A DNA stretch of 64,000 nucleotides, taken from NCBI GenBank assembly GCA_964519725.1, contig CAZFKS010000001.1:119270-183269 (forward strand), given 5' to 3'. Positions 8,431 to 60,285 of this stretch are shown in pieces. Numbering within the stretch: the first letter of the stretch is position 1; each line of letters opens with the position of its first letter. The notes beneath the pieces were generated by a model that had not been told where the DNA came from, ran no database searches, and saw nothing but the letters and a program-made list of their open reading frames with translations. A program made the translations under genes and the position numbers. The stretch is from an uncultured Gammaproteobacteria bacterium (GTDB taxonomy: Bacteria > Patescibacteriota > Patescibacteriia > Magasanikbacterales > UBA922).

Positions 8431-8438
8431 TTTAAAAT

Positions 8439-8990
8439 TTACCTTGAAATAGTATCAAAATTTTGCAATTCTTTTCTTATATCAGCATACTTAGGCATGG
8501 CTCTAGCAACCAATTCCCAAAATTTCTTAGAATGATTTAATTCTTTTAAATGACATAGCTCATGCACGACAATATAATCCACCAAATAATCTGGCAAAAA
8601 CAAAATTTTATAATTAAAATTAAGATTCTTTTGTCCGGAACAACTCCCCCATTTAGTACTCTGTTGCTTAATACTAATGCGGTTATAAGAAAAATTATAC
8701 AATTCATTATAATGTACAACTCTTTCCTTAATTAATTTCCTAGCACGTTTAGCACAGGCATGATAATTTGTTTGTGGAAAATCCCTAGAGATTTCCTTCT
8801 TTTCTTTTTTTTGGAAAAACAAAATTTTAGACTTGATCCATTCGGCTTTTTCAGTGATGTATTTTTCCACCCCAGACAAATCAAATCCTTTTGGTACAAC
8901 CACTGAAACTCGAGCATCACAATTCACAACGATTCTTAGTCGCCGTGCTCGTTCACTTTCTTTAACCGAGTAAGCAATGCCGTGAGACAT
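8439..8990 (-). CDS. DUF45/YgjP (COG1451, WLM/M48-like) zinc metallohydrolase
   Basis: HExxH motif VVHELCHLKELNH. This family is a well-known neighbour of type I hsdR genes. Confidence 0.75.
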   Translation of the reverse strand: MSHGIAYSVKESERARRLRIVVNCDARVSVVVPKGFDLSGVEKYITEKAEWIKSKILFFQKKEKKEISRDFPQTNYHACAKRARKLIKERVVHYNELYNFSYNRISIKQQSTKWGSCSGQKNLNFNYKILFLPDYLVDYIVVHELCHLKELNHSKKFWELVARAMPKYADIRKELQNFDTISR

Positions 8991-8991
8991 G

Positions 8992-11931
8992 TTAAAACTT
9001 TTTAATGATTACATCGACTAAGCGATTGAGTAATTGATTTCGTTCAATGTCTTTGGTTAGGTTACCAAAATCTTTCCAAATTAATTCCTGCAAGGTTTGC
9101 TTGGTATTTTTAACAAACACATCTCGTTTTGATGACTCTTGCCAACCAGCATCAAGATCAGCTTCAACTCGAATCCGAACTTCTTTTACAAATTTTTGAA
9201 TCTCCTCGCCCTTTGTATCTTTTACAAACTCCTGTGAGATAACATACAGAGCATATTCTTTTAGATCAAGGCCTAATTCCTTAGCCTCTTCAGCTTTGGT
9301 TTTAATATCACTCATCAATTCCTCATAGCGACGAATTCTTTCGGCCAAATCAATCTGGTTTTGTTCAAATTGACGACGAATTGAAGTGAGACGCTCACTA
9401 AATTTAACAAACACGGGATTTTCATCCAAATTGATTGAAATTTCTTGTTTAAGCATCTTCTCCAAATTGAGCGCTTTTTCTTCTTCATCCATTCCCTTAA
9501 GTCGTTCAAGTGTATACAAATCATTCACACGCAACTCACGGAAATTTTTAGTAATTCCCTCGTAATCAATGATATTACTTTTTTGAATCAGAGCGCGAAC
9601 TTTTTCGCCATACTCTTCAAGAAGATACTTATCATCTTCACTCCGAAATTCCTTCAAAAAGGCCAAATAAAAACCGGTCACCCATTCAAATGGTCTAATT
9701 GATGGTTTCAAAAATGGATCCGGAGACAGAAACTCAAACAAACTCTTTAATTTTAAGTATTTCTCCACAAAGTATTTTTGCTTGTCCTGATTGTCAATAA
9801 AAATTTTCAAACAACGGCGTAAATTATCCATTGATGGGTCCTCAATATTTACACCAGTAAATATTTTCATGACATCATTCAACACATCGGTAAACAGATC
9901 TTTGATTCTGGCAATATCAATCATGGCTGAATCAATTATCTCTTCGTCAAAATCGAGCGCATCGTACAAATTTCGGGTAATTCCGTAATAATCAATAATC
10001 TTCCCGGCTTCTTTGTTTTTATATACCCGGTTAGTACGGGCAATGGCTTGCAAAAGATTATGGTCACGTAAAGGTTTATCCAAATACATGACTTGTTCAA
10101 TTGGTGCATCAAAACCAGTGAGCAACATGTCGCAAACCAATAAGAATTTAAGCGGTGACTTTGGGTCTTTGAATTGCTCAATAATCTGTTCACGTTCCCG
10201 TTTACTGGTGTTATAGACTTTCAAATCATCGGCATCACTATTTGGATCTCCAGGTGAATACACCACTGCCGACCATTCAGCTGGAACTAATTTATCCAGC
10301 AGTGTTTTATAAGCAGCCACGGCTTCACGATCATAGGCCACAATCTGAGCCTTAAAGCCGTTTGGTTCCACATACAGCTTGTAATGTTCCACAATATCTC
10401 GCGCCACTGCTTCCATCCGCTTGGGTAATTTTACCAAAGCTGCTTTTTTACCATATTTCTTTACCAATTCAGTTTTTTGTTTATCCGATAAATCACCAGC
10501 AATCTCTTCAAACTGTTCATCCAACTTAGTTTCATCAATCGAAAATTTAGACAGCCGCGCTTCATAGGTCATGGGAATAGTCGCGCCATCTTCAATTGCC
10601 TGTTGAATTGAATAGTAGTCTAAATAACGTTGACCTTCCCCTTCATAATTGCGGAAGGTATTGGTGTGCGCTTTATCCACAGGCGTACCAGTAAAGCCAA
10701 AGAAAAAGGCTTTCTTGAACGCATTACGCATGTTAATCCCCGATACCCCCTCGTCGCCTCGGTGTGCCTCATCGGACAGAACAATCACATTTTCATCTAA
10801 ATTTTCTACTTTGTCACCCAATTCAGAAAACTTTTGAATAGTGGTAATAAAAATCCCTTTTTCTGGTGACTGAATTTTTTCTTCTAAATCCTTGCGAGAA
10901 GTCACGCGGATAATATTCTTTCCACCGGCATTGATGAAGGTTTCAAAAATTTGGTCATCCAAATCTACCCGGTCAACCAAAATAAATACCTTAGGATTGG
11001 CTAATTCTTTATTAAAGCGCAATTTCCAGGCCGTAAAGTACATGGTCAAGGTCTTTCCTGACCCTTGGGTATGCCAAATTAAACCTTGGTGTTTTTCTTT
11101 TTTAACTACCCGGTCAACGATCTTATTAGTGGCCCGCATTTGCTGGTAACGGGCAATTTTCTTTACCACTCGCTCTTTTTCTTTTTCAAACAGAATAAAG
11201 TTTTGAATAATATCCAAGAAGTTATTCTTTGAAAGTAAAGAAATAAGGGTAACATCTAAACTAGCATCGTCTACATAATGACCTTTCCCTATCATAGACT
11301 TGGCTAGGTCATCATCACGCCACTGTAAAAAGTACTGCTTTGGTGCACCAGTCGCTCCGTAGACAGTTTTAAGGCCATCAGTGGCAATATTAAAGCAGTT
11401 AGGGATAAATAATTTACGAGCCACTTTTTCGTAACGCTTAATCTGATCAATCCCATTCTCAAAACTAACACCTTCCGAAGCAGTCGGACTTTTAGCTTCA
11501 ATATCTACTAATGGAATACCATTTAAAAAAATCAAAATATCCGGCCGAATATTTTCCGTATCACCTTCAAAATAAAATTGGTTAGTAACCACAAACTGAT
11601 TATTTTCAGGATTATCAAAATCAACTAATTTGTAATCTTGAAAATCACCAGTACTTGGATTTCGCAAATTAATCCCTTCACGCAAAGCTTTTAAAAATTC
11701 CTCATTAGAGTCAATCTTTTTAACCTCGCGAATAACATTACTAACCTCACTCACAGTTACCCCTGGATTAAGCCCCGCAATCGCCCGCTCCAAAAACGGA
11801 ACAATAATATACTCAACCTCAAGGTCGCGTAACTTAGCAAATTCCTCTGGCTTAATATACTCAAAACCAAGCTTATCCTTAATAAACTTAATAATGTAAT
11901 TTTCAATTGTGACTTGTTCGTTGAATTTCAT
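8992..11931 (-). CDS. hsdR: type I restriction enzyme R subunit
   Basis: 979 aa. N-terminal nuclease core (RPDILIF...DIEAKSP), helicase motif I HTQGSGKTLTM, DEAH box SDEAHR, motif VI QAIARTNR. Confidence 0.9.
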   Translation of the reverse strand: MKFNEQVTIENYIIKFIKDKLGFEYIKPEEFAKLRDLEVEYIIVPFLERAIAGLNPGVTVSEVSNVIREVKKIDSNEEFLKALREGINLRNPSTGDFQDYKLVDFDNPENNQFVVTNQFYFEGDTENIRPDILIFLNGIPLVDIEAKSPTASEGVSFENGIDQIKRYEKVARKLFIPNCFNIATDGLKTVYGATGAPKQYFLQWRDDDLAKSMIGKGHYVDDASLDVTLISLLSKNNFLDIIQNFILFEKEKERVVKKIARYQQMRATNKIVDRVVKKEKHQGLIWHTQGSGKTLTMYFTAWKLRFNKELANPKVFILVDRVDLDDQIFETFINAGGKNIIRVTSRKDLEEKIQSPEKGIFITTIQKFSELGDKVENLDENVIVLSDEAHRGDEGVSGINMRNAFKKAFFFGFTGTPVDKAHTNTFRNYEGEGQRYLDYYSIQQAIEDGATIPMTYEARLSKFSIDETKLDEQFEEIAGDLSDKQKTELVKKYGKKAALVKLPKRMEAVARDIVEHYKLYVEPNGFKAQIVAYDREAVAAYKTLLDKLVPAEWSAVVYSPGDPNSDADDLKVYNTSKREREQIIEQFKDPKSPLKFLLVCDMLLTGFDAPIEQVMYLDKPLRDHNLLQAIARTNRVYKNKEAGKIIDYYGITRNLYDALDFDEEIIDSAMIDIARIKDLFTDVLNDVMKIFTGVNIEDPSMDNLRRCLKIFIDNQDKQKYFVEKYLKLKSLFEFLSPDPFLKPSIRPFEWVTGFYLAFLKEFRSEDDKYLLEEYGEKVRALIQKSNIIDYEGITKNFRELRVNDLYTLERLKGMDEEEKALNLEKMLKQEISINLDENPVFVKFSERLTSIRRQFEQNQIDLAERIRRYEELMSDIKTKAEEAKELGLDLKEYALYVISQEFVKDTKGEEIQKFVKEVRIRVEADLDAGWQESSKRDVFVKNTKQTLQELIWKDFGNLTKDIERNQLLNRLVDVIIKKF

Positions 11932-11938
11932 ATATTTA

Positions 11939-12991
11939 TTAAAATGAAATTTCGCTTAGATTAATTTCTTCAATGGGCTTAATTTTTTCCTCGAGATTCT
12001 TAATTTCTAATTCGACATCAGTCTCCTCCCCTTCTTTTTGAATCGTTGCTCTGATAATTGCCCAAGTTTCAGGGTCAAAAAGTTCAGGTTTTGGTAATAA
12101 ATGCTCTCTATAAAAAGAGTTTGTATCTTGATCGTTAATTACCCAACGTACTTGGCTGTTTTCTAACAATGCATTTGCAAGTCCTTTAATTTGGGAGTCA
12201 TTAAAACTACTATACTTTGAAAGCTTACTCACTAAATCATGCGTAGTTAAAAAATTTGGACTATTGATCAATCCTTGCACTAAACTATCTTTTTCTTGCT
12301 CAACTCTCAGCTGAATTTTAATATCATGCTCAGAAAAAAATCTAGTGAGACTTTTATAAAAAAATATTTCATTCTCTGGATGAACTTTTTTCCACTCTTC
12401 CACTAAATAATCCTTAGCAAGATTTTCATCAATGGGATGCGAGTAATCTCCGTCCTTACTCAAAAGGATAAATTCTCCTTCTCCTTCGACTTCAGCCAAC
12501 AGTGCTTCCCAATTAATCTCATCACCGTAACTCCTATCCTTTTTACCTGGTGGTCGCCCCAGCCGATGTCTTTTTATAGATTGAGGTAAATATGCATCTG
12601 ATTCAATAATTTTACTCTCAGAAATAAGATCTTGAATTACCTTATCTGCCTTTAAAGTATGTTTTTGGATATCATTCCACAACTTTTTACTCAATTGTGC
12701 TTTTAGCTTGTCTAGAATATTTTGAGCACGCTTTATGTCAGTATATTCGTCATAGTGTTTACAGAATGGAGGCATTGTTAAAGTTGGTTTTGATTTAGCA
12801 AATTCCCCATAAGCCACTTTAAGTCTTACTTCACGATTTCGTTTAACCTCATCACAGACTTGGGAGGTAAGGAAAAGCTTAATTTCTCCAGACTTAATAA
12901 AATCAACTAATTTTGCAAGTTGAGTCAAATCTTCATCGTGAAAATCGTAAAAGTTGAGAAAAATATTTGAATCTATAAATAGTAATTTCAT
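11939..12991 (-). CDS. hypothetical protein with N-terminal PIN-like predicted nuclease fold, embedded between hsdS and hsdR
   Basis: LLFIDSNIF (acidic residue on beta-1), QVCDEV helix, LLSKDGD are spaced as the conserved PIN acidic positions. C-terminal about 170 aa unassigned. 4-bp overlap with hsdS. Confidence 0.35.
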   Translation of the reverse strand: MKLLFIDSNIFLNFYDFHDEDLTQLAKLVDFIKSGEIKLFLTSQVCDEVKRNREVRLKVAYGEFAKSKPTLTMPPFCKHYDEYTDIKRAQNILDKLKAQLSKKLWNDIQKHTLKADKVIQDLISESKIIESDAYLPQSIKRHRLGRPPGKKDRSYGDEINWEALLAEVEGEGEFILLSKDGDYSHPIDENLAKDYLVEEWKKVHPENEIFFYKSLTRFFSEHDIKIQLRVEQEKDSLVQGLINSPNFLTTHDLVSKLSKYSSFNDSQIKGLANALLENSQVRWVINDQDTNSFYREHLLPKPELFDPETWAIIRATIQKEGEETDVELEIKNLEEKIKPIEEINLSEISF

Positions 12992-14226
12992 ACTTGTTTT
13001 TTTCCACTCAGCAAATCTTGCATCAAGCCATTTTTGAGTAAAGTAAGTTTTGTTTTTAATTTTTTATTTACCGAAATTTTTTCATCAACAGCGGAAATAA
13101 TTTCTGCAATTTTTTCCTGCTCTTTCTTTTGTGGCAGGACAATTAAAAGTGGATTAAGTTTTTCCAAATTAATATTTTTTTGAGCGGATTGGGTAGAAAT
13201 ACTGTTAAGATACTCTTTTTGAGTTCTTAAATAATATTCCAAAAAAATCGGATTAATTTTTTCTTTACAAGAAATGCCCACCAAGCTATCAGGAAAGCAC
13301 GAATCAAACTCTAATATTCCAGTATCGCCAATGTTCGCGGCAATTGTAATAACGATAGTGCCTTTTTTAAACAATTTACTCACAGATAGACCTTTTTCGT
13401 TAAGTGTTTGGGTGTACTTTTTTATTCTTCCGTCTGAGCTGATAACATCACCAGTCTGTATAAATGGAATTTCCCCTCCATAAAATTCTGGTGCATTTCT
13501 CGGTCTATGAGAAAACTTACCCCGCTCCACAAGTGCAACGTCAGAAAGTCTTACGATATTCCACTCTTCCGGAATTTGTCCGATTTCTGTTTCCTTAAAT
13601 TTAGTATGCCCAATCCCATTTGTAAAAAGCTGCATCATTAGCCCGTGCTTGAGTTTTTCCGCAGATTTAATCACTTCATGCGTTTTAGTAATATCTTCAT
13701 CCACCGTCCTCAAAATCCCAGCAATCTTTTGTTGTTCTTTGATTGGGGGTAGTAAAACTTCTATACTTTCAACTTGGCTGGAGCTTATATTTTTTTGAGC
13801 CGCACCAATAAAATACTTCTCAAGTTTTGATATAAAATCTTTGTACAAAAATACTTGAAATGTAAAATCAGGATCTAAATCCTTATCTTTAAAGACAACA
13901 CGTCCTACGCGTTGATTTAAAATTGCTGGAAGATATTTCTTGTCAATTCGCGCTACTTTACCAAGTTCGCCAGTCATGCCCATCAAGATATCATTTTCTC
14001 TTAAGTGTACAGATTCATTGTTAGCATACCCATCTTCAGATATATACACAAAATCATTAGCCACAAAGTCTCCTTTGCCAACATTACCAATACGCACAAG
14101 CGGAATACCATCATTTACATAATTTGACGCGTTAAACGCATTGCCTCCTTGAAGCTTTATATGCCTTCCAATCGGAAGTAATTCCCACCCCTTAGGGATA
14201 TTTTGCTGTATCATGTTGGTTTTCAT
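12988..14226 (-). CDS. hsdS: type I restriction-modification specificity subunit (two target-recognition domains)
   Basis: 412 aa. Repeated TRD plus conserved spacer helices (LLPPIKEQQKIAGIL... and VLPQKKEQEKIAEII...) typical of HsdS. Confidence 0.85.
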   Translation of the reverse strand: MKTNMIQQNIPKGWELLPIGRHIKLQGGNAFNASNYVNDGIPLVRIGNVGKGDFVANDFVYISEDGYANNESVHLRENDILMGMTGELGKVARIDKKYLPAILNQRVGRVVFKDKDLDPDFTFQVFLYKDFISKLEKYFIGAAQKNISSSQVESIEVLLPPIKEQQKIAGILRTVDEDITKTHEVIKSAEKLKHGLMMQLFTNGIGHTKFKETEIGQIPEEWNIVRLSDVALVERGKFSHRPRNAPEFYGGEIPFIQTGDVISSDGRIKKYTQTLNEKGLSVSKLFKKGTIVITIAANIGDTGILEFDSCFPDSLVGISCKEKINPIFLEYYLRTQKEYLNSISTQSAQKNINLEKLNPLLIVLPQKKEQEKIAEIISAVDEKISVNKKLKTKLTLLKNGLMQDLLSGKKQV

Positions 14227-15128
14227 ACTATGTTATTTGAAACCCATTTAATTGAACCAGCAATAGAAGCGTTCAAAACTTGTAGACAAATTTTTGCAGT
14301 ATGAATATCTGGTGAAAATTTTGAAATACTTTGTTCGTAAGGATGGATATAATTGCGAAAATCTCGCAGAGCGTGTCCAAATTTCTTTACATCCAATCCA
14401 ATCACGCCGAGTTCGTGAGCCACGTCAATAAGACCAGCAAGCTTCCAATCAGGTAACGGTAAAACTTTTCCAGTTTTGTCTTTCGGACTTGCATTAGCTG
14501 ATTGAAATTTTTGAGGATGTTTTACTGCGATACCAAATAAAATTCCTTCCAGCGTACTGCCAGCCATAATAACAGAAGATAAAGGCGACTTGTATTGTAG
14601 ACATTGGCGAGATTCTAGAATACGCTCTTTTAATATACTCTCTATTGCCGCATCAAGACCGAGCTTGGAAATGTCATTTTCATCAAAATCTTTTTTTAAA
14701 AACTCTTCTTCAGAATCAATTGATGTATTTTTTGTATCTATTATTGGGCCGACAGACTCCTTTAAATACTTTAGAATAGGGTCACGGCCTTGAAAAGCAA
14801 CACTCATGTTCTCCATAGACAAAATATCGTTCATCGCTTTTGCAGCCATCTCCAATTTAGCTCTATCTGCCTTGTACTCCCTTATATCAACAAGCCTCAA
14901 AATCACTTTTTCAAGGTCATTCAATGTTAATTGTTTGAGCAGTTCAAGTACCCACCATTTTCGAGTACTACCATCATGGGTCACATTTATATTTATATTT
15001 TGAAAAAAACGAGTTAAATAACCTGAAGATCTATATTCCGGGTACTTTTGCGCCACATCTCCACAAATAAAATCAGCAAGGGCATCAAGTGTCGCGGGAT
15101 CTAATTTATTTTTTAAAAATACCGCCAT
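14223..15128 (-). CDS. hypothetical protein, HEPN-like (Rx6H motif) Abi/DUF4145-type candidate embedded between hsdM and hsdS
   Basis: C-terminal HALRDFRNYIHPYEQ contains an R-x6-H motif in a helical context. The position equals that of known HEPN/Abi insertions in type I R-M operons. Otherwise no strong motif. Confidence 0.3.
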   Translation of the reverse strand: MAVFLKNKLDPATLDALADFICGDVAQKYPEYRSSGYLTRFFQNININVTHDGSTRKWWVLELLKQLTLNDLEKVILRLVDIREYKADRAKLEMAAKAMNDILSMENMSVAFQGRDPILKYLKESVGPIIDTKNTSIDSEEEFLKKDFDENDISKLGLDAAIESILKERILESRQCLQYKSPLSSVIMAGSTLEGILFGIAVKHPQKFQSANASPKDKTGKVLPLPDWKLAGLIDVAHELGVIGLDVKKFGHALRDFRNYIHPYEQSISKFSPDIHTAKICLQVLNASIAGSIKWVSNNIV

Positions 15129-15129
15129 A

Positions 15130-16821
15130 CTAATATTTCAATTCCTTGAGATATTCGTCCACCTTTTTATCAATAATATCCCGCTCTTTTTCAATTTCCT
15201 TTACCTGAGCCCACACGGTTTTTACATCAATGTTTTCTTCTTCATCAGCATTTTCCACATAGCGACGAACATTGAGGTTGTATTCGTTTTCTGCTAATTC
15301 TTTGGTGTCAATAACGCGGGCGTATTTTTCGATATCACGGTAATTTTCAAAGGCGGAGACAATTTTTTCAATATCAACCTTACGCAAACGGTTTTGATTT
15401 TTTCCTTCTTCGTAATCTTGTTCGGCGTCAACAATGAGGATTTTATTTTTGTGATCGACTGGCTTATTTTTGTTAAAAATTACAATTGCAGCCGGAATAC
15501 CTGTTCCGTAAAAAAGTTTAGCTGGGAGTGCGATGATGGCTTCAATTAAGTCATTTTTAATGAGTTGTTCACGAATACGGCCTTCGGCCCCGCCACGAAA
15601 AAGCACGCCATGAGGAAGTACAATGCCAGCGCGACCATTTTCATTCATTGATTTAACTAAATGCATGACAAAGGCATAGTCCGCATTTTTGGCTGGCGGC
15701 ATTTCATATCCAGCGGCTCGTTTATAACTATCTGATTTAAATTTTTCGTAAGCGTAGTCCTTAATCGAGTACGGTGGATTACTAATGCAGATGTCGAATG
15801 TTTTGAGTGTACCATCTGGGTTGAGGAACTTCGGGTCAGCCAGTGTGTCCCCGCGTTGAATGTCCGCACTATCCAGTCCATGCAAGAACATGTTGATTTT
15901 GGCAATGGCGTAGGTGCCAATATTAATTTCTTGTCCGTAGAGGTAAAGTGAACGGGCCTTTTTTTCACCAGCTTCATTCTTTAAATGGTGATATGCTTCC
16001 AACAAAAAACCACCTGAACCAGCGGCCATGTCGTAAATATGGTCTTTCTCATGTGGCTTTAAAATATTAATAATTACACGTTCAACTTCGCGCGGTGTGT
16101 AGAAACTACCACCTTTTTTACCACCATCAGCAGCAAATTGTTGGATGAGGTATTCATAAGCATCACCTAAAAGGTCGGTACTAATGTAGTTGTCGCCAAA
16201 ATTATGCTTGGAAAAATGATTGATTAGTTTTTGCAAAATTTCATTGGGAAATTTGTCTTTATTGGCAAAATCCAGATCGTCAAAAATACGGTCCAGTTTT
16301 GGACTATTGGCAGTAGTGAGGTCATCAAAAATAGTATTGAGTTTTTGGCCAATACCTTCGGCTTGCTGTTGAATGACTTCCCAACGACAATGACTCGGGA
16401 CTTGAAAACGATGGTTATAATCAGCCCGAGCCACTTCTTCATCATGATATTCTTCTAGGACTTTTTTATATTCTTCGTCCCACACATCACTAATGCGCTT
16501 GTAAAAAAGAAGACCGAAAATATATTTTTTGTAATCAGCACTATCAATGCGGTCGCGCAAAATATCCGCACTGCTCCACAAAAATTGCTTGAGTTGAGTG
16601 AGGTTCATTTTTCCCTCGTCGTTGGTCAGCGAGCTGCCCAAGTCTTTGACAATACTTTTGTCATTGGCGATTCGTTCAATATCCTCGGGCTTATATTTAC
16701 GGTCTTTGCGAGGACCAACCCGTAAAGGGGTTATGAGCCCTTTTTTCTCCCAGTTGCGGAGAGTGTCTTGATGAATGCCAAAAATGGTTGAGACTTCGCT
16801 AATACTGAGTAGATTGGCCAT
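15130..16821 (-). CDS. hsdM: type I restriction-modification N6-adenine DNA methyltransferase M subunit with N-terminal MerR-type HTH extension
   Basis: NPPY motif ISNPPYS, SAM motif DMAAGSGGFL, HsdM N-domain (LWSSADILR). First about 50 aa LSISEVSTIFGIHQDTLRNWEKKGLITP is an HTH_17/MerR-like helix-turn-helix. Confidence 0.9.
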   Translation of the reverse strand: MANLLSISEVSTIFGIHQDTLRNWEKKGLITPLRVGPRKDRKYKPEDIERIANDKSIVKDLGSSLTNDEGKMNLTQLKQFLWSSADILRDRIDSADYKKYIFGLLFYKRISDVWDEEYKKVLEEYHDEEVARADYNHRFQVPSHCRWEVIQQQAEGIGQKLNTIFDDLTTANSPKLDRIFDDLDFANKDKFPNEILQKLINHFSKHNFGDNYISTDLLGDAYEYLIQQFAADGGKKGGSFYTPREVERVIINILKPHEKDHIYDMAAGSGGFLLEAYHHLKNEAGEKKARSLYLYGQEINIGTYAIAKINMFLHGLDSADIQRGDTLADPKFLNPDGTLKTFDICISNPPYSIKDYAYEKFKSDSYKRAAGYEMPPAKNADYAFVMHLVKSMNENGRAGIVLPHGVLFRGGAEGRIREQLIKNDLIEAIIALPAKLFYGTGIPAAIVIFNKNKPVDHKNKILIVDAEQDYEEGKNQNRLRKVDIEKIVSAFENYRDIEKYARVIDTKELAENEYNLNVRRYVENADEEENIDVKTVWAQVKEIEKERDIIDKKVDEYLKELKY

Positions 16822-21061: not shown

Positions 21062-22498
21062 CTAGAACCGGAAGTAAATAAACGGATTAAACTCAGCGTT
21101 TACTAAATATAAAATCGCGAGCCCCGCAATAATCAGGGCACAGACTGAACTCACAAAAATCGTACCAGTTTTATGGAGTCGCGCTTCGCCCGAACACATC
21201 AGTTCGTCCCAGGCAGAAAAAGCCGGTAAAAAACTGAGCACCAAAGCCACAATTAACGTAATGTATGTACGTGCATTAATCACATCAGCAAAAAAGAGCG
21301 CGCCAGGTACAGGTGTATGCGCGTGCCCAAACATGACACCAATAAATTGCACGGCGCCAGTAATTGTTTCACTCCGGAAAAACACCCAACCAATTTGCAC
21401 CAGTAAAAAGGTCGCTAGGATATTAATAAATTTTGGTACACGCTTGGTAAGTTTAGCCAGGCCCGCTTTATCAAGCACAATAAATAAACCGTGATACAAA
21501 CCCCAGACCAAAAAAGTCCAGTTAGCGCCGTGCCAAATTCCAGACAAGGCAAAAACAATGACCAAATTTAAGTACGCACGCCAGGCGGCCACCCGATTGC
21601 CCCCGAGCGGAATGTACACGTATTCGCGCATAAAGCGCGACAGTGAAATGTGCCAACGCCGCCAAAAATCCGTAAAATTCTGGGCAATATACGGGTGGTC
21701 AAAATTTTCCATCCACTTAAACCCAAGCATCCGGCCAAGGCCAATGGCCATATCAGAATAACCAGAAAAATCAAAAAATAATTGGAGGGTGTAACACAAA
21801 ATTCCCAGCCAGGCAAAACTTGGTTGCAAGGCATAATTTGGTAAGCCAAAAATACTGTCAGCCACCACCCCAAGTGGATTGGCGAGCAAAACTTTTTTAC
21901 CCAGACCAAAACAAAAGCGCCGCAACCCATACCCAATTTCTGTGAGTGATAGCCGCCGGGTGTGGAGCTGATCAGCCACATCATGGTACCGGATAATTGG
22001 CCCGGCAATTAATTGCGGGAAAATTAAAATGTATAGCAAAAATTCACCCAGATTTTTGGCTGGTTTGGCAGTACCGCGGTACACATCAACCGTGTAACTA
22101 ATTTTATGAAAGGTAAAAAAGGAAATTCCAATTGGCAAAACGACTTTGGTCCAGGCTAGCGCCGCAATTCCAAAATACTGCAGACCAGCGTTAAATTGCT
22201 CAACAAAAAAATTCGCGTATTTGAAATACCCGAGCAAAACTAAATTTAAAACCAGAGACGCAATTAAGAGCCCCTTACGCTTTGAATGATTTTTTGCCTG
22301 ATCAATCCCCTGACTTAAGACAAAATCTAAAACACAACTAACCAAAAGTACCGCCGCAAAAGTCGGCGCACCCCAGCAGTAAAACAAAAGGCTCCCAGCC
22401 AAGGCCACCGCATTCCGAAACCGAGCCGGGGTCAGATAATAGATGACAAAAAAAGCCGGGAAAAACCCAAATAAAAACAGAAGTGAACTAAATACCAT
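21062..22498 (-). CDS. MBOAT-family membrane-bound O-acyltransferase (AlgI/DltB-like)
   Basis: 478 aa polytopic. N-terminus FFPAFFVIYY...LLFYCWGAP and a conserved His region (WHISLSRFMREYVYIPLGGNR) typical of MBOAT. Confidence 0.85.
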   Translation of the reverse strand: MVFSSLLFLFGFFPAFFVIYYLTPARFRNAVALAGSLLFYCWGAPTFAAVLLVSCVLDFVLSQGIDQAKNHSKRKGLLIASLVLNLVLLGYFKYANFFVEQFNAGLQYFGIAALAWTKVVLPIGISFFTFHKISYTVDVYRGTAKPAKNLGEFLLYILIFPQLIAGPIIRYHDVADQLHTRRLSLTEIGYGLRRFCFGLGKKVLLANPLGVVADSIFGLPNYALQPSFAWLGILCYTLQLFFDFSGYSDMAIGLGRMLGFKWMENFDHPYIAQNFTDFWRRWHISLSRFMREYVYIPLGGNRVAAWRAYLNLVIVFALSGIWHGANWTFLVWGLYHGLFIVLDKAGLAKLTKRVPKFINILATFLLVQIGWVFFRSETITGAVQFIGVMFGHAHTPVPGALFFADVINARTYITLIVALVLSFLPAFSAWDELMCSGEARLHKTGTIFVSSVCALIIAGLAILYLVNAEFNPFIYFRF

Positions 22499-24377: not shown

Positions 24378-24680
24378 CTAGGAATGGACCCGCATGTGCT
24401 CCTTAACCAGGCTCATTTCCCGTTGAAATTCCTCTTTGGTGACCATAGTATTGGCCATTTCCCCAACCGCCTCAAAGAGGTCAGAGACATTGGTTTTGAT
24501 CTCGGACATTTCCTGTTTTAACGCCCGGATGTCCCTTCTAAATTCTTTACTCTCTTGCTTTAGGCCGGTAGTTTCCCCTTTCACCCCAGCCATATCTTGC
24601 TTTAAAATTGAGATGTCCTTTTTCATCTCCAAAAAATCACTTTGCATTTGAATTAAAATTTGCAAAATTTGTGCCTCCAT
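24378..24680 (-). CDS. hypothetical coiled-coil protein with internal heptad-like repeats
   Basis: 100 aa. Repeated LKQDM/LKQEM segments. No enzymatic motif. Confidence 0.35.
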   Translation of the reverse strand: MEAQILQILIQMQSDFLEMKKDISILKQDMAGVKGETTGLKQESKEFRRDIRALKQEMSEIKTNVSDLFEAVGEMANTMVTKEEFQREMSLVKEHMRVHS

Positions 24681-24806: not shown

Positions 24807-25463
24807 TTAAACTGTGAATGGTACGTTATTTTCTACTGCAACCAACCGTATTCCATCAGGTGAAAGTAGCGCGTCAGCATTTTTGTAATACGAACCAGGA
24901 AATTTCAACATCCTATCGTGGACTGGAAAATATTGACTTGGTTTTACAGCCTTGGCAAAGTCTACTGTCTCAGCCAATTTTGCCCACGGCGCGCAAATTG
25001 GCAGGGCCAAAATTTCAATTGGTCTGTTGGGCAGCGCAAAAGAATCACCAGGGTAATACAATTTATCCGCAAAAATAAAACCCGTGTTTGGAATATCACT
25101 TTTAGCATAACCCGGATAAATGGGCGCGTGTTTTTCTCCAACGGCTTCCACTGAAATATCTTTAACCTGAATTATTCCACTCGAAAATTCCGTCCAATTA
25201 ATCTTATTTTCAGTCAGCCCTTTCCCCACTCCTGAATTAGTGTAAATTTTCATCGTCGGATTATTTTGCACGAGGCCTTTAATTTTTTCTAGGTCAGTGT
25301 GGTCTTGATGTTCATGCGACAAAAACAGAGCATCAATATTTTTGAGCTCTGAAAGATCTTCTGACCAACTGCCTGGGTCAACTAATAATCTCACACCCTG
25401 CTTTTCTATCAAAAGACAAGAGTGACCTAATTTTGTGATTTGCATATCTATTATATATACCAC
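24807..25463 (-). CDS. MBL-fold metallo-hydrolase
   Basis: HxHxDH motif LFLSHEHQDHTD plus downstream His/Asp residues. Confidence 0.8.
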   Translation of the reverse strand: MVYIIDMQITKLGHSCLLIEKQGVRLLVDPGSWSEDLSELKNIDALFLSHEHQDHTDLEKIKGLVQNNPTMKIYTNSGVGKGLTENKINWTEFSSGIIQVKDISVEAVGEKHAPIYPGYAKSDIPNTGFIFADKLYYPGDSFALPNRPIEILALPICAPWAKLAETVDFAKAVKPSQYFPVHDRMLKFPGSYYKNADALLSPDGIRLVAVENNVPFTV

Positions 25464-25508
25464 TCTTTAAACTAAGTGGCAATGTGTGTATAAACCTCAA
25501 AATAGCCC

Positions 25509-25536
25509 TTGCATTATCAATTTCAAGTCTTATAAT
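25509..25536 (+). promoter_or_regulatory. sigma70-like promoter (TTGCAT-16-TATAAT) for the SET-domain gene
   Basis: ttgcat tatcaatttcaagtct tataat, 14 nt upstream of ATG 25551. Confidence 0.45.
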
Positions 25537-25550
25537 AATGTCGTCTGCGT

Positions 25551-26099
25551 ATGAATTACCACCCGTCAATTCAATTAAAGGAGACTGTTTTTGGAAAAAG
25601 CATTTTCACCAGTTCTGACCTACGTCCTGGGACTTTTTTGATTGAAATGACTGGTCAAACTTTTCGCCTAGAAGATATTCCCCCTCTTAGCGAACGCCAG
25701 ATTATGGATCACTATATTCAGTGTTCAGATGATCTCTTTCTTGGCCCCTCTGGTTTATTTGACGATTATTTTAACCACTCTTGCGACCCAAACGCTGGTC
25801 TTTTTTTTAATAATGGCCGAATTTTGGTTAAAACCATAAAACGTGTGCCAGCTAATACAGAAATTTGTTTTGATTACTCCACCGTCATGACCATTGACCC
25901 TCTTGTCATGCAGTGCTCATGTCGATCAAAACTTTGCCGAGGTGAGGTTTTACATTTTCGCACCTTACCAGAACGAACCCGCAATCGCTATATCGCACTT
26001 GGTATTGTGCCGCAATTTTCCATTGCGTCATGTGCTGTTTCAAATAAAAAAGTCAGCCAAAAAATATCACTTTTTCAGCCGACTTTAGTGACTGCCTAG
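25551..26099 (+). CDS. SET-domain protein (putative protein-lysine methyltransferase) with post-SET Cys cluster
   Basis: NHSCDPN and ICFDY SET signature motifs. Post-SET C-x-C-x4-C (CSCRSKLC). Confidence 0.8.
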   Translation: MNYHPSIQLKETVFGKSIFTSSDLRPGTFLIEMTGQTFRLEDIPPLSERQIMDHYIQCSDDLFLGPSGLFDDYFNHSCDPNAGLFFNNGRILVKTIKRVPANTEICFDYSTVMTIDPLVMQCSCRSKLCRGEVLHFRTLPERTRNRYIALGIVPQFSIASCAVSNKKVSQKISLFQPTLVTA

Positions 26100-26100
26100 T

Positions 26101-27852
26101 TTAGATTTTTTCAGAAATAAAACCACCAACTTGTAATTCCCACAATTTGCGGTACAGGCCGCCGTTTTTGGTAATTAATTCTGCGTGCGAGCCAGTTTCT
26201 TGTACCTCACCATTATCCACGACAATAATGCGATCCATACGCATAATGGTTGACAGGCGGTGGGCAATCACAACAACAGTTTTACCGGCCATTAATTTAT
26301 CCAGGGCATCTTGAATCATGCGTTCAGATTCTGAGTCGAGACTTGAGGTTGCTTCATCGAGTAGTAAAATTGGCGCGTTGCGCAAAATCGCGCGCGCAAT
26401 GGCCACGCGTTGGCGCTCACCACCAGACAATTTTACCCCGCGCTCGCCCACCAAAGTATTGTACTTGTCAGGCAAAGATTCAATAAATTCATGACAATGG
26501 GCACGCTTGGCCGCTTCAACCACCTCGGCTTCAGTGGCCTCTGGTCGCGCGTAGCGAATATTATCGAGGAGTGACCGGTGAAATAAGACTGGATCTTGCG
26601 GCACATAACTCATTGTTTGCCACAAACTTTCTTGCGTAATTGTTTTAATGTCTTGGCCACCAATTTTTACCGCCCCTGACAGCGTGTCATATTGGCGCAT
26701 AATTAATTTGAGGAGGGTCGATTTTCCAGCGCCACTTGGACCAACTAGAGCCACACGCTCCCCGGCTTTAATTTCCAAACTTAGACCATGAATAAGTGGT
26801 TTTACTTTGTCATAACCAAAGCGCACATTTTCCCACTCAATCGTGGCCGGCGCAGTTTGCCAGTCTTTGGCATTTTTCGCATCCTGAATTGCGTGCGGAG
26901 TTTCGAGAATCTCGGTCATTTCATTGGCATAGGCCATGTCCGTGTACGTGTCACGAATCAACCGACCCAGGTCCCAAATGCGGAGGAATAAAGTCAGCAA
27001 ATACGCCTGGATCAACGCAAAGTCACCCAGAGTGATTAAACCTTTTTTCCATAACACCAAAGCCGCACCCATTAATCCAATTTCGAGCGCGTGCATTAAA
27101 ATTGCTTGACCAGCATCAAACCAACCATCTAGATTATAGGCTCGCCATTGGGCCTTACTTACCTCTTCATTACCGTTGGCATAATCAGCCACTTCCCGAC
27201 CATAACCATTGAAAAATTTAAGGGCTGATTGGTTGGTAATAGTGTCAGCTAAACGCGCTGTTTGTTTGGATTCTTTTTCACTACGGTCTAAATCAAGTGG
27301 CATTTTCTTGCGAATCAACCAATAATTTAAAGTACCAAAAATCACAAACCACACTGACATGATCAGTGGTAAATACCAACTGCGAGTAGCTAAGATTACC
27401 AAGATAAAAACAATCGTAATTAAAATTTGCGAAAAATTCCAAATTACACGGTCAGAAATATTAGCAAAAGCACCCACATAACGATTCACCCGCTTAACCA
27501 GTGCCCCCACAAAATTACTATTGAAAAAATTTACTGAGTGTTTATGCAAATACTGAAAACAAAAATTATCAATATCGGCTAATAATTTTGGCTGAAGCTT
27601 AATCCAAATAAAGGCCGCTGTGCGCCACAATACCCAGTCGAGTAAATAAAAGAGGCCAGTCAGGGCTAAAATCTGAAACAAAGCCCGCATCTCGAGACCA
27701 GTATTCAGGCCATCAAATAAACGCTTGTAGTAGAGGGGTGGTACTAAGTTTACAAAATTAGCCACCACCGCGGTTACAATCACAACAAAAACCAGCTTCC
27801 GCTTTTTGGCAAAGCACCAGTAAGTTTTGAGGGTAGTTTTTGTGTAATTCAT
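26101..27852 (-). CDS. ABC transporter, fused permease/ATP-binding (MsbA-like exporter, no peptidase domain)
   Basis: Six N-terminal TM helices. Walker A GPSGAGKST, signature LSGGERQRVAIARA, Walker B LLLDEATS. Confidence 0.9.
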   Translation of the reverse strand: MNYTKTTLKTYWCFAKKRKLVFVVIVTAVVANFVNLVPPLYYKRLFDGLNTGLEMRALFQILALTGLFYLLDWVLWRTAAFIWIKLQPKLLADIDNFCFQYLHKHSVNFFNSNFVGALVKRVNRYVGAFANISDRVIWNFSQILITIVFILVILATRSWYLPLIMSVWFVIFGTLNYWLIRKKMPLDLDRSEKESKQTARLADTITNQSALKFFNGYGREVADYANGNEEVSKAQWRAYNLDGWFDAGQAILMHALEIGLMGAALVLWKKGLITLGDFALIQAYLLTLFLRIWDLGRLIRDTYTDMAYANEMTEILETPHAIQDAKNAKDWQTAPATIEWENVRFGYDKVKPLIHGLSLEIKAGERVALVGPSGAGKSTLLKLIMRQYDTLSGAVKIGGQDIKTITQESLWQTMSYVPQDPVLFHRSLLDNIRYARPEATEAEVVEAAKRAHCHEFIESLPDKYNTLVGERGVKLSGGERQRVAIARAILRNAPILLLDEATSSLDSESERMIQDALDKLMAGKTVVVIAHRLSTIMRMDRIIVVDNGEVQETGSHAELITKNGGLYRKLWELQVGGFISEKI

Positions 27853-39672: not shown

Positions 39673-40791
39673 TTAAAAATTTCTCAGGGCCAGGCCAATG
39701 GAAACCGCCATCCGGGGCGCCAGGTCATGGAGGAGAGGTTTGAGGCCATCCTGGTACAAAACCCGGGCCCACGGGTCACCAACAAACACCCGGACTGGAA
39801 ATTGGGTTTTTAAGTATTCAACCACTGGCGGAAATTGAGCCGCCCCACCAGTTAAAATAATTTTTTCTGGTTTGCGATTTTCATTGCCAGTCTGGCTCAG
39901 GTACAAATCAAAGTGGTACTGAATTTCTTTGGCCAGTGGTTCCAGGAATCTAATAAATGGTTCAGACGTAACTAACGCACTTGAAATATTGGAGACATCG
40001 TGCTTGAGTAATTGGGCCTGTTTCAAATTAACCCCAAGTCTCTCGGCAATCACCGAATCTAAAATTGAACCACCCAATTGCAAACTCCGCTGAGTCATTG
40101 GCAAGCCTTTATCAATGAGGGAAAAATTGGTGCGTTCAGCGCCAATGTCAACCACCATGGTCAAGGCCTCATCTTTACCAACCAGTGACCGGGCCAAAGC
40201 AAAGGCTTCAGTTTCTAATTCTTGTAAACTTAAACCAGCTTGTTGAAAAATACGGGTGTAAAACATGACCATGTTTTTTGGCGCGGCTGTGACCAGTAAA
40301 CGGATATAATGTTTTTTTAATTCTTCACTAAGCGGCACTGGCTGATACACAATTTGCATGTCATCCAAAGATTGAGGCAAAACTTTAGCTACCTCAGCGC
40401 GGACCAACTTATCAATTTCTTTTTCTGGAACTTGAGGCAAATTAATAATGGTGTGAAAAACATGAGACACCGGCAAACTAGAGGCAGCGCGCTGGCCCAC
40501 AACCTTAGCTTTTTTAATTAAATCCTTAAGAAGCAAACCGTAGTGATCAGCCCGTTCCGCACTAAATTCATCGGCTTCGGATAGAACTGATTTTTTGGAC
40601 ATGGTTTTTCCAGTTGGACTGAGGGGCGCGGTTTCAGTTGCTGTCGCGTGAATCGCAATTTTTTCTTCAGCAATGCCATAAGTCCACAGCTGTGGGCGCG
40701 CTTTGGTTCGACGAAGTTCAACTAATTTAATTCCCTCTGCGCCAATATCAACGCCAATGTATGATTCAATTTTATTTCCAAATAGTCCCAT
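39673..40791 (-). CDS. pilM: type IV pilus assembly protein PilM (actin-like ATPase fold)
   Basis: GVDIGAEGIKLVEL N-terminal phosphate-1 motif, internal VVDIGAERTNFSLI. 372 aa. Pilus gene context. Confidence 0.7.
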   Translation of the reverse strand: MGLFGNKIESYIGVDIGAEGIKLVELRRTKARPQLWTYGIAEEKIAIHATATETAPLSPTGKTMSKKSVLSEADEFSAERADHYGLLLKDLIKKAKVVGQRAASSLPVSHVFHTIINLPQVPEKEIDKLVRAEVAKVLPQSLDDMQIVYQPVPLSEELKKHYIRLLVTAAPKNMVMFYTRIFQQAGLSLQELETEAFALARSLVGKDEALTMVVDIGAERTNFSLIDKGLPMTQRSLQLGGSILDSVIAERLGVNLKQAQLLKHDVSNISSALVTSEPFIRFLEPLAKEIQYHFDLYLSQTGNENRKPEKIILTGGAAQFPPVVEYLKTQFPVRVFVGDPWARVLYQDGLKPLLHDLAPRMAVSIGLALRNF

Positions 40792-57939: not shown

Positions 57940-58242
57940 ATGAATAAAGCCATGCTGGCCGAACAAATCGCTCACAAGGTCGGTGTTTCTAAAAAAGAAG
58001 CTGAGGCTATGCTTGAAGCTTTAGTTGACATCACCATCAGTGAACTTAAAGCTAATAATGAAGTGACCATTTCTGGTTTTGGTGCGTTCAGTGCTAAAAC
58101 TCGCGCTGGTCGTGTTGGTGTGAATCCACAGAACCCAACTGAAAAAATTCAAATTCCACCAGTGACTGTACCAAAATTCAAAGCTGGTAAAAGTTTGAAA
58201 GATGCACTCAAAAGTAAAAGTGAAGTAAAACCACAAGCTTAA
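57940..58242 (+). CDS. hup: DNA-binding protein HU
   Basis: Beta-arm RAGRVGVNPQNPTEKIQIPP and N-terminal helices typical of HU/IHF. 100 aa. Confidence 0.9.
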   Translation: MNKAMLAEQIAHKVGVSKKEAEAMLEALVDITISELKANNEVTISGFGAFSAKTRAGRVGVNPQNPTEKIQIPPVTVPKFKAGKSLKDALKSKSEVKPQA

Positions 58243-58509: not shown

Positions 58510-60285
58510 TTAGCGCGCTGGTGGCACCTGGAAATATTCCAGGAGAAACTTGGACAAATCCCCAAAGACGGGCGCTGCGGTGCTTTCAGCATAGGCTGGT
58601 TCTGGTTTTTCGTATTTTACGATCATGACGTATTTAGGGTCTTGAGCTGGGGCAAAGCCAATAAATGAGTGGTTGTAAGTTTTAGTATATCCACCTGGCC
58701 CAGCGATTTCCGCTGTTCCTGATTTACCAGCCACTTGGTATCCAGTCACCCGCGCGCGACCGCTGTAACCTTTATCAACGGTGGCTACCAAAATATTTCC
58801 AATTTGACCCGCCGCTTTACGATTTAAAACCGTGCCAATTGGTTTTGGTTTAGTCACTTCAATATGACCGTCAGCAAATTGTTTTTCTTTGATAATGTAT
58901 GGTTTCATCAGAGTACCACCATTAGCAATTACCGAAAAAGCTGTGGCTGCTTGTAGTGGTGTCACTGTTAAACCCTGACCAAATGACGCTGTGGCTGTGT
59001 AACAATCTAATTTATTGCCCTTATTTTGGGTGAGCGAATCAATGGTTCCACTCACTTCAGTATCTAATTCAATTCCAGTTTCTACACCAAAACCAAACCG
59101 TTTAACATATTGTAAAAATTTTTGTTTACCTAAACTTTCCACTACGTGTACCATCCCAGTGTTAATTGAATTTTGAATCACCCCGGTCATGGTCTGATCA
59201 CCAAATGCTTTATTGCCCGCATTTTGAATTGGATGCTGACAAATTCCATCGCGGCGGCCAGTGTCAAAAAATGGTGTGTTTGGCGTGACTGCACCCTCGT
59301 TCAAAGCCGCGGCCATGGTAATTGGTTTAAAAATTGACCCTGGTTCGTACGGTGTAAAAATCGCGGAATTATTAAAAATATTGGCGTCAGTAACTTTGTT
59401 ATATTCATTTGGATTAAAATCTGGCAGTGAACACATGGCTAAAATGGCCCCCGATTTTGGTTCCATAATTACGAGCGACGCACTCGTGGCTTTATAATCA
59501 ATCATCCCCTGCCGCAAACGTTCACAAGCCTTAAATTGAATGGTCCGATCAATGGTCAAAACCAAATCTGCACCATCTTCAGCCGGTTTTAAAAGACCCT
59601 TATTTGACTCAATCCAACTACCACTAGCTGAACGCAGCCCCTCAATAAAACCACCTGATCCAGCCAAATTTTTCTGCCAGTAGCCTTCAATTCCGTATCG
59701 GCCCAGTGCATTACCTTTATCATCTTTTCCCACAAACCCAATCACCGTGGCCGCCAAATTTCCCTCAGGATAATTGCGGTGCGGCTCGCGCACAAAATAA
59801 ATGCCTGGCAAATCTAGGGCTTTAATGGTTTCCATTTTGCGCTGGTCTAAACGCTGTTCAATTGGTTCGTACGGATCAGTCCGTTTATTTAGTTGTTTGG
59901 TAATAGTTTCGCGGCGCTCAGGCGCAAAAGTAAATTGTTTATCGAGCCCATCCAAAACTTGGCGCGCCATTTCTTCAGTTTTAATTTCGCGTGTGTCAGC
60001 GTACAGGGTGTACACATCATCATTAAGAGCAATTGGATAGGGCGTACCAGTGCGTGCATCTGACAAAAAAATTTGACCGCGTTTTGGTAGCAAAGTTGAA
60101 CTTGATTCATGCGTATTAGCCGCCAGTGCCGTGTAAAAACCATGTTCCAAAACCATGAGAAAAAATAACCGCGCAATAATAATTCCAATTCCGCCAAACA
60201 AAAACCAAGTGGCCACTTTAATGCGCTCCACTGAAGCAAAATCAGCACGAGGATTAGATAAACGGTTAGAGTAATTCACAGGCAA
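58510..60285 (-). CDS. penicillin-binding protein 2 / FtsI-type transpeptidase
   Basis: N-terminal TM anchor. SxxK GSIFKP, SxN, KTG motif AGKSGTAE. 591 aa. Confidence 0.85.
   Translation of the reverse strand: MPVNYSNRLSNPRADFASVERIKVATWFLFGGIGIIIARLFFLMVLEHGFYTALAANTHESSSTLLPKRGQIFLSDARTGTPYPIALNDDVYTLYADTREIKTEEMARQVLDGLDKQFTFAPERRETITKQLNKRTDPYEPIEQRLDQRKMETIKALDLPGIYFVREPHRNYPEGNLAATVIGFVGKDDKGNALGRYGIEGYWQKNLAGSGGFIEGLRSASGSWIESNKGLLKPAEDGADLVLTIDRTIQFKACERLRQGMIDYKATSASLVIMEPKSGAILAMCSLPDFNPNEYNKVTDANIFNNSAIFTPYEPGSIFKPITMAAALNEGAVTPNTPFFDTGRRDGICQHPIQNAGNKAFGDQTMTGVIQNSINTGMVHVVESLGKQKFLQYVKRFGFGVETGIELDTEVSGTIDSLTQNKGNKLDCYTATASFGQGLTVTPLQAATAFSVIANGGTLMKPYIIKEKQFADGHIEVTKPKPIGTVLNRKAAGQIGNILVATVDKGYSGRARVTGYQVAGKSGTAEIAGPGGYTKTYNHSFIGFAPAQDPKYVMIVKYEKPEPAYAESTAAPVFGDLSKFLLEYFQVPPAR

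Follow-up and report, generated by a model that had tools for sequence, protein, structure and literature searches.

What does a SET-domain protein do in a bacterial cell, and does the gene that encodes it still make a working enzyme? The question is raised by a single gene at positions 25551 to 26099 of a 64-kb stretch of contig CAZFKS010000001.1 (the whole stretch of 64,000 nucleotides that was analysed is called the window here). SET enzymes are best known as histone methyltransferases of eukaryotes and as effectors of a few pathogens, and the window gene provides a clean example from the candidate phyla radiation (CPR, or Patescibacteria). We read its product as an active intracellular protein-lysine methyltransferase whose targets are one or a few of the cell's own proteins, probably basic ones, and the gene as transcribed from a sigma-70-type promoter of its own, and we give this reading a rough probability of 0.55.

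The protein scores 48.1 bits with the Pfam SET model (PF00856), for which the gathering score is 22.4 (E = 1.7e-12), and its residues 15-110 cover profile positions 1-105 of 105. By Pfam it consists of a single SET domain with no extra module, and none of the NCBIfam models scanned with it matches. A preliminary description of this DNA had called the gene a SET-domain methyltransferase with intact motifs, and NHSCDPN, EICFDY and the post-SET cysteine triad are all confirmed from the sequence. The coding sequence and its elements are:

25551..26099, plus strand: SET-domain methyltransferase coding sequence, ATG start, 182 amino acids plus stop
25593..25601, plus strand: motif I for binding of S-adenosylmethionine (SAM), G15-K16-S17, aligning with GWG of ASH1L (family consensus G-x-G)
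25773..25793, plus strand: NHSCDPN motif, residues 75-81, with the cofactor-binding Asn-His, the pseudoknot and Cys78 as a putative zinc ligand
25860..25877, plus strand: EICFDY motif, residues 104-109, with the catalytic Tyr109 and with Phe107 at the F/Y-switch position, aligning with ELTYDY of ASH1L
25914..25937, plus strand: post-SET motif C122-S-C124-RSKL-C129 (CxCx4C), aligning with the post-SET of ASH1L and MLL1 and predicted to bind zinc
25938..26045, plus strand: family-specific helical C-terminal extension, residues 130-165, RGEV..F..LP....YI.LGIVP.F
26046..26096, plus strand: basic disordered C-terminal tail, residues 166-182, NKKVSQKISLFQPTLVTA, with a predicted local distance difference test (pLDDT) score of 56-63, overlapping the terminator of the neighbouring gene

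In an alignment of 19 relatives, residues G15, Q57, N75, H76, S77, C78, P80, N81, Y109, C122, C124 and C129 are invariant, D108 is conserved in at least 90%, and so are R130, L139 and Y147 of the extension. A search against the sequences of solved structures returns the SET/post-SET domains of ASH1L, NSD2, SETD2 and MLL (E about 1e-7), and the alignment with ASH1L pairs GKS with GWG, NHSCDPN with an identical NHSCDPN, ICFDY with LTYDY, and the cysteine triad with the post-SET motif. An AlphaFold model built on the alignment of the 19 relatives (mean pLDDT 88, predicted template modelling score 0.80) is poor only over the last ~20 residues, and the predicted fold is a SET beta-fold with a pseudoknot. 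The extension is modelled with helices at 141-150, 155-159 and 163-168 (pLDDT 91-96). Foldseek comparison of the model with the PDB gives MLL1, ASH1L, SETD2 and NSD2 at E about 1e-9, and the folds nearest to the predicted model are those of SET1, MLL, ASH1L and SETD2.

The gene is intact. An identical sequence occurs in a 1892-nt contig from an independent sequencing run of a second sample, so that Ser17, being present in two samples, is no sequencing error, and the conservation of the N-terminus among relatives shows that the start codon is correct. Compared with its relatives, the gene differs by 0.06-0.34 non-synonymous changes per site while synonymous sites are saturated, and in the two closest pairs the ratio of non-synonymous to synonymous rates (dN/dS) is 0.08 and 0.13. 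The SET gene is under purifying selection across the whole domain. Loss of catalytic residues or decay into a pseudogene had been named beforehand as what would overturn the assignment; with Asn75, His76 and Tyr109 invariant and dN/dS at 0.08-0.3, the gene is no pseudogene. Recent horizontal acquisition of the gene was also considered and rejected, since its guanine-plus-cytosine (GC) content of 40.6%, against 42% for the window, bears no compositional sign of it.

Upstream of the coding sequence lie three elements that make up the promoter region:

25485..25493, minus strand: DnaA-box-like 9-mer, TTATACACA on the minus strand and TGTGTATAA on the plus strand, 15 nt upstream of the -35 hexamer
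25509..25514, plus strand: -35 hexamer TTGCAT, a 3/6 match to TTGACA
25531..25536, plus strand: -10 hexamer TATAAT, a perfect consensus, 16 nt after the -35 and 14 nt before the ATG

TTGCAT-16-TATAAT had been described as a consensus promoter. That the gene has a promoter of its own stands, the arrangement being conserved in nine distinct loci, and so does the consensus -10; the -35 is not consensus at three matches of six, which is why a generic promoter scan did not list it. The nine promoter-bearing loci come from a comparison of the loci of relatives 50-69% identical to the SET protein, together with one further locus (L008). In these, TTG of the -35 is invariant, the homologues having TTGATT, TTGCAT or TTGCAA; the -10 is TATAAT or TATACT in all nine, the spacer is 16 nt, and the ATG follows 10-17 nt downstream.

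The nine loci also share the 9-mer, which lies 14-15 nt upstream of the -35 in every one of them and always fits TTWTNCACA, the relaxed DnaA-box consensus (canonical box TTATCCACA). It reads TGTGGATAA, the reverse complement of the canonical box and thus a perfect box, in seven of the nine, TGTGGAAAA in L089 and TGTGTATAA in the window. The genes upstream vary, from a metallo-beta-lactamase (MBL) hydrolase in the window to a coiled-coil protein (L088, L089), a 162-residue protein (L090) and DUF2238 (L002, L003, L008, L093), and because the module is kept despite these differences, it moves together with the SET gene. Every homologous locus with an exact TTATCCACA has a single copy, the box upstream of the SET promoter. 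The composite pattern of box, -35 and -10 occurs once in the 64-kb window, where 0.09 matches are expected, and in all 14 fetched loci of the SET subfamily that carry the promoter; in 163 other loci (1.26 Mb) it has a single match, within a murD-like coding region. One relative's locus, L098, is without the module, and there the SET gene starts 21 nt after the upstream gene. A nearby oriC as the source of the box was rejected, as GC skew is uniform and one-mismatch boxes in the window are at chance level. The pattern suggests that DnaA, or another factor that recognises TGTGGATAA, may bind the upstream box and modulate SET expression. The conserved DnaA-box-like site is the one unusual feature of the SET gene.

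Transcription would proceed on the SET gene alone, head-on to replication, from this sigma-70-type promoter with its perfect -10. The start is predicted at about 25543, which would give an mRNA leader of probably ~7 nt. No Shine-Dalgarno sequence precedes the gene. A Shine-Dalgarno-like motif is found before only 5 of 58 window genes, and its absence together with a short leader is thus normal for this genome. Several other genes have an extended -10-like sequence, TGGTATAnT, within about 10-20 nt of the start codon (25446-25470 on the minus strand, 21062..22498, 39673..40791 and 58510..60285), which suggests that leaderless or very-short-leader mRNAs are widespread in the genome.

The gene had been described as standing alone on the plus strand within a long run of minus-strand genes, and over about 1-56.1 kb this is correct: all other non-overlapping genes in this part of the window are on the minus strand, including the small genes checked in gaps (an RNA-recognition-motif protein and ATP synthase subunit c). 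GC skew on the plus strand is uniformly negative through the window, which makes the minus strand the leading one and places the SET gene head-on to replication; by GC skew, the window contains neither an origin nor a terminus. The claim that the gene is monocistronic is likewise borne out, the next gene, an ATP-binding cassette (ABC) exporter, being convergent. Only 1 nt separates the SET stop codon (26097-26099) from the exporter stop codon (26101-26103), and the 3' end of the SET gene carries one further element:

26039..26086, minus strand: intrinsic terminator of the ABC-exporter gene, a 16-bp hairpin (26086..26049) followed by a U-run

The hairpin folds at -17.9 kcal/mol (z = -5.1, none of 200 shuffles as good), compared with -8.9 kcal/mol for its plus-strand version, and is likely the terminator of the ABC gene. 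It lies inside the last ~17 SET codons, so that this region is both protein-coding and an RNA structure. The SET tail is not conserved even among the closest relatives (L088, L089), because it is encoded over the terminator hairpin of the neighbour. A plus-strand hairpin at 26149-26162 is a possible terminator of the SET gene itself and is not significant.

In the mechanism we propose, the protein would be a cytoplasmic, SAM-dependent enzyme of the SET (class V) fold, with residues about 7-112 as the SET core. In the pseudoknot, NHSCDPN and EICFDY are predicted to meet and to build both the site for the cofactor and the channel for methyl transfer, at which Tyr109 would sit. A structural zinc, probably held by Cys78 and the post-SET cysteines Cys122, Cys124 and Cys129, would close this channel; the helical extension (130-165) would pack behind this zinc site, and the short basic tail is predicted to be disordered. 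The intact motifs, the fold and the selection together argue for an active SAM-dependent methyltransferase. The best sequence, profile and structure matches are protein-lysine methyltransferases with a post-SET zinc site; a lysine in a protein is the probable substrate, and the chemistry is most likely methylation of the lysine epsilon-amino group. Phe107 occupies what we take to be the F/Y-switch position that governs the number of methyl groups in DIM-5 and MLL1, and suggests that a lysine could be methylated more than once. The catalytic core is mildly acidic (isoelectric point 6.4, and 5.2-5.6 in relatives) and the disordered tail basic; an acidic core fits basic substrates.

Several observations weigh against this reading. 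In SAM-binding motif I, the second Gly is replaced by Ser17, which could weaken cofactor binding. At the Tyr position of the Y-x-G motif, a channel residue of histone methyltransferases, the window protein has Met33 (IEMTGQ, compared with IEYLGE of ASH1L), and distant relatives have Phe. The remaining aromatic channel residues, F107 and Y109, are present, and the lysine channel, as judged from these residues, is not fully canonical. The neighbouring genes (MBL-fold hydrolase, coiled-coil protein, TypA, ABC exporter and ATP synthase) hint at no substrate. As to regulation, the window's own box has one mismatch, and one-mismatch boxes occur in the window at chance level (22 found, 19 expected), so that the evidence for the box is its positional conservation.

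The window protein resembles the catalytic domains of eukaryotic SET1/MLL and SET2/ASH1L/NSD/SETD2 enzymes in its SET and post-SET parts, with C78, C122, C124 and C129 aligned, at sequence identities of 17-25%. Unlike these, it has no pre-SET/AWS, reader domain or partner-binding region, its SET-I is short, the channel Tyr of the Y-x-G motif is replaced by Met33, and the post-SET is followed by a helical extension of ~35 residues that eukaryotic structures do not match. The full-length architecture is instead that of compact prokaryotic SET proteins of 150-200 amino acids with the C-terminal extension, which are 30-57% identical to it and come from Desulfobacterales, Spirochaetes, Sphingomonas, Bdellovibrionales, Leptospirales, Methanosarcinales, DPANN archaea and other CPR lineages. 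The window protein belongs to this family of SET, post-SET and helical extension, which is essentially uncharacterised, its close compact relatives being annotated only as 'SET domain-containing protein', with no experimental annotation in the sources searched. Compared with the other compact relatives, the Magasanikbacteria subclade to which the window gene belongs has a promoter-plus-box module of its own.

One compact bacterial SET enzyme of reported activity and structure is BurB (also MSMT; PDB 9l4t), which S-methylates free methionine and is encoded in a dimethylsulfoniopropionate (DMSP)/malleicyprol gene cluster with BurI, BurD and BurE (PMC12542666). By analogy, the SET fold of the window protein could enclose a metabolite and not a protein lysine, a small-molecule methyltransferase activity that we consider unlikely. 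It would agree with the similar size of the two proteins, both without pre-SET or reader domains, with Met33 or Phe in place of the channel Tyr of histone methyltransferases, and with the family profile, which in a search of PDB sequences finds BurB at E = 9e-15 and follows it to profile position 145, whereas matches to eukaryotic SET proteins stop at about residue 131-138. In the same search, however, MLL1 scores 2.7e-21, and lysine methyltransferases outscore BurB in every comparison. BurB is only about 20% identical to the window protein, and BurI, BurD and BurE have no match among the six neighbouring genes scanned (MBL-fold hydrolase, ABC exporter, TypA, coiled-coil protein and the epsilon and beta subunits of ATP synthase). 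The window protein is not a demonstrable orthologue of BurB. CPR metabolism is, to our knowledge, very reduced, and we would not expect DMSP synthesis in these bacteria. A protein that has kept the fold for a non-enzymatic role, such as binding, and is catalytically impaired through the change of Gly17 to Ser is very improbable in our estimate. The motif is G-x-G in more than 90% of the family, G17 itself is conserved at 90% or more in the subfamily, and both samples agree on Ser; yet all other catalytic and zinc-binding residues are intact, Gly to Ser is a mild change, and purifying selection extends across the whole domain.

CPR bacteria are largely episymbionts, and a SET enzyme might be delivered by such a cell to its host cell or surface and methylate host proteins there, in the manner of NUE or RomA/LegAS4, whose targets are histones of the host; for the window protein we regard this as improbable. 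The characterised bacterial SET proteins are mostly effectors, among them Chlamydia NUE, Legionella RomA/LegAS4, Burkholderia BtSET and Bacillus anthracis BaSET, which are secreted by pathogens of eukaryotes and carry secretion signals, nuclear localisation signals or ankyrin repeats (PMC3980110). The window protein shows no such feature and is not a member of the secreted-effector group. Its conserved N-terminus (MNYHPSIQLKET...) is, judged by eye, unlike a signal peptide or membrane anchor, and no secretion-system protein is found among the neighbouring genes scanned, so the suggestion of an effector that accompanied the preliminary description is not borne out. PHROGs and PADLOC scans of the SET protein give no matches, and neither these nor Pfam point to a secretion or defence context. 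ABC exporters adjoin SET both in the window and at several of the homologous loci, but these adjacencies are not orthologous, the window exporter being only 24-28% identical to the ABC pair of other loci, and L090 has no ABC genes. A conserved disordered tail, FFPxxQSQTVNA, occurs in more distant relatives and could be taken as an export feature, but the tail is unconserved in the clade of the window protein, where it is encoded by the terminator hairpin of the neighbour. Huge phages, which by necessity act on bacterial cells, also encode SET relatives; against this, the wider SET family is common in free-living bacteria.

For the protein-lysine methyltransferase that we favour, the most probable mode of action, by analogy, would be that of Goe1-SET of Methanosarcina mazei, which is reported to methylate MC1-alpha, and of cpnSET of Chlamydia pneumoniae, which is reported to methylate Hc1 (PMC3980110). 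Likened by description, these are likewise small stand-alone prokaryotic SET enzymes, acting on the cell's own DNA-binding proteins. A Methanosarcinales genome (L011) encodes a 170-residue member of the compact family, 37% identical to the window protein. Neither MC1 nor Hc1 is known from CPR bacteria, and unlike these two systems, the sole nucleoid protein seen in the window is HU, which is unlinked to the SET gene:

57940-58242, plus strand: HU, 32 kb from the SET gene

HU occurs in nearly all bacteria. HU is present in the window as had been described, but the pointer to it as a candidate substrate finds no support; at a distance of 32 kb and with no sign of association, a link between the SET gene and HU was rejected.

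The gene is not an oddity of this genome. That bacterial SET proteins are uncommon, as had been supposed, finds no support: a profile search of 1.84 billion cluster representatives (clusters at 50% identity) returns 641 clusters at E <= 1e-30 and 8359 at E <= 1e-10, the best matches being mostly 150-220 amino acids long and covering the full profile including the extension, and a scan of species-representative genomes with the family alignment confirms at least 588 relatives, from many free-living phyla as well as CPR, DPANN and huge phages. Among the relatives listed are bacteria (Spirochaetota, Desulfobacterales, Sphingomonas, Bdellovibrionales, Leptospirales, Gemmatimonadota), archaea (Methanosarcinales, Nitrosopumilaceae, Aenigmatarchaeota) and CPR lineages (Uhrbacteria, Parcubacteria, Saccharibacteria, Moraniibacteria), and named metagenomic relatives include Micrarchaeota and Nanoarchaeota. 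With a family so widespread in many phyla, DPANN and huge phages, the window SET protein is no exotic acquisition. The further claim that bacterial SET proteins are usually effectors or modifiers of nucleoid proteins reflects the few characterised cases; BurB methylates free methionine and no protein (PMC12542666). In full-text searches we found no paper that discusses SET proteins in Patescibacteria/CPR; one paper names SET domains as well as the CPR, each in passing.

Logan, ENA and NCBI are the only sources with members of the close SET subfamily; a scan of JGI metagenomes with subfamily patterns gives no close relative, and a scan of species-representative genomes with the single window protein gives no match. 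Within the lineage the SET gene is patchy, as seen from the lack of a close JGI relative, from its absence from all 80 loci with homologues of the window ABC exporter, and from one locus (L101) that keeps the order AtpD-AtpC-...-ABC and then continues with PcrA.

In IMG/VR there are 60 relatives, the best of them on contigs of 180-520 kb, and very large viral contigs of this kind are presumably huge phages. Loci L180-L190 (IMG/VR contigs of 90-480 kb) hold full-length relatives of 28-39% identity, including the C-terminal extension, and another relative (P0015, L006 3090-3563) lies among phage-like genes, namely dUTPase, RNase T and many small unknown genes. At the top of the profile search over cluster representatives are giant proteins (P0029, 1449 amino acids; P0030, 1479; P0031, 1415; P0034, 960) that contain five to eight tandem copies of the compact unit of SET, post-SET and extension. 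In loci of Parcubacteria, Saccharibacteria and Moraniibacteria the SET gene is followed by a sensor histidine kinase of seven-transmembrane type (L018 4312-7245, L019 4286-7301, L022 4322-7346, L077 4962-7127, L083 2794-5018), and in L018, L019 and L022 it is preceded by a multi-pass membrane protein of 195 amino acids (PNRWSWLIWS, no Pfam match). In Sphingomonas (L024 4458-5528, L030 4344-5486, L038 4335-5489) a membrane protein is fused N-terminal to SET, giving proteins of 356-384 amino acids, and the fusion genes adjoin histidine-kinase and GGDEF/EAL-type genes. These arrangements point to the existence of a membrane-anchored, signalling-linked SET subfamily.

Closer to the window gene, the neighbourhood differs between two groups of relatives. 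In the window, L088 and L089, an MsbA-like ABC exporter is encoded convergently with the SET gene. In the more distant clade ('type B' loci, SET proteins 50-57% identical to that of the window), a class-I methyltransferase of 252 amino acids, UbiE/Methyltransf_11-like, begins 3-7 nt downstream of SET (L002 6001-8340, also L003, L008, L090, L093, L096 and L098), often with an ABC pair and DUF2238 upstream, and the SET proteins share a disordered C-terminal tail, [KR]-rich...FFPxxQSQTVNA. The window is without both the conserved tail and the downstream methyltransferase. Where the DNA reaches and no gene intervenes, the class-I methyltransferase is followed by a coiled-coil protein of 118 amino acids and a 3'-5' exonuclease of RNase-H fold of 194 amino acids; L090 has an extra opposite-strand gene of 155 amino acids in this order, and the L098 contig ends sooner. 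A functional link between SET and the ABC exporter was rejected, given the low identity, the lack of ABC genes in L090 and the 80 ABC-homologue loci without SET, and a link to the class-I methyltransferase fails for want of an orthologue in the window. For these two reasons no functional inference is drawn from the neighbours. A coiled-coil protein of 100-114 amino acids lies on the SET side of TypA (window 24378-24680, minus strand; L088 338-667; L089 363-707); in L088 and L089 it is the immediate divergent neighbour of SET, and in the window the MBL-fold hydrolase stands between them. Matches of this neighbouring 100-residue protein to YabA, ZapB and DivIC are generic coiled-coil matches below threshold and were not used. 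The tail as a beta-clamp-binding, secretion or pseudo-substrate motif (QKISLF, or FFPxxQSQTVNA of the relatives) was dropped, being unconserved in its own clade and overlapping the terminator.

The window encodes RNase Y, ComEC, a PcrA-type helicase, a long leucyl-tRNA synthetase and an F-type ATP synthase. The RNase Y shares 85% identity with its counterpart in Candidatus Magasanikbacteria bacterium RIFCSPHIGHO2_01_FULL_41_23, and nearly all of its named relatives are from Magasanikbacteria, and a SET cluster 69% identical to the window protein is also annotated Magasanikbacteria, so that the window comes from a CPR (Patescibacteria) genome. Two further features of the window stand apart from the SET gene. 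A Type I restriction-modification system (HsdR 8992-11931, HsdM 15130-16821, with genes between) lies in a block at 8001-16821 with a GC content of 36-37% compared with 42%, which suggests a horizontally acquired island. The leucyl-tRNA synthetase (46249-49245, minus strand) is unusually long at 998 amino acids, and the bacterial LeuS model matches it in two separated stretches, indicating a large insertion.

Taken as a whole, the result is less a surprise than a solid annotation, and the module of box and promoter gives a concrete handle on the regulation of the SET gene. It is an improbable further step, prompted by the perfect box conserved at a fixed distance from the promoter, to place the gene in a Magasanikbacteria DnaA regulon in which methylation of an abundant DNA- or ribosome-associated protein would be tied to the state of replication initiation in a minimal CPR cell; if true, a SET enzyme in the DnaA regulon would be a bacterial counterpart of replication-coupled chromatin methylation. 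If the target of the enzyme were found, it would tell what an ancient minimal SET module does in cells without histones.

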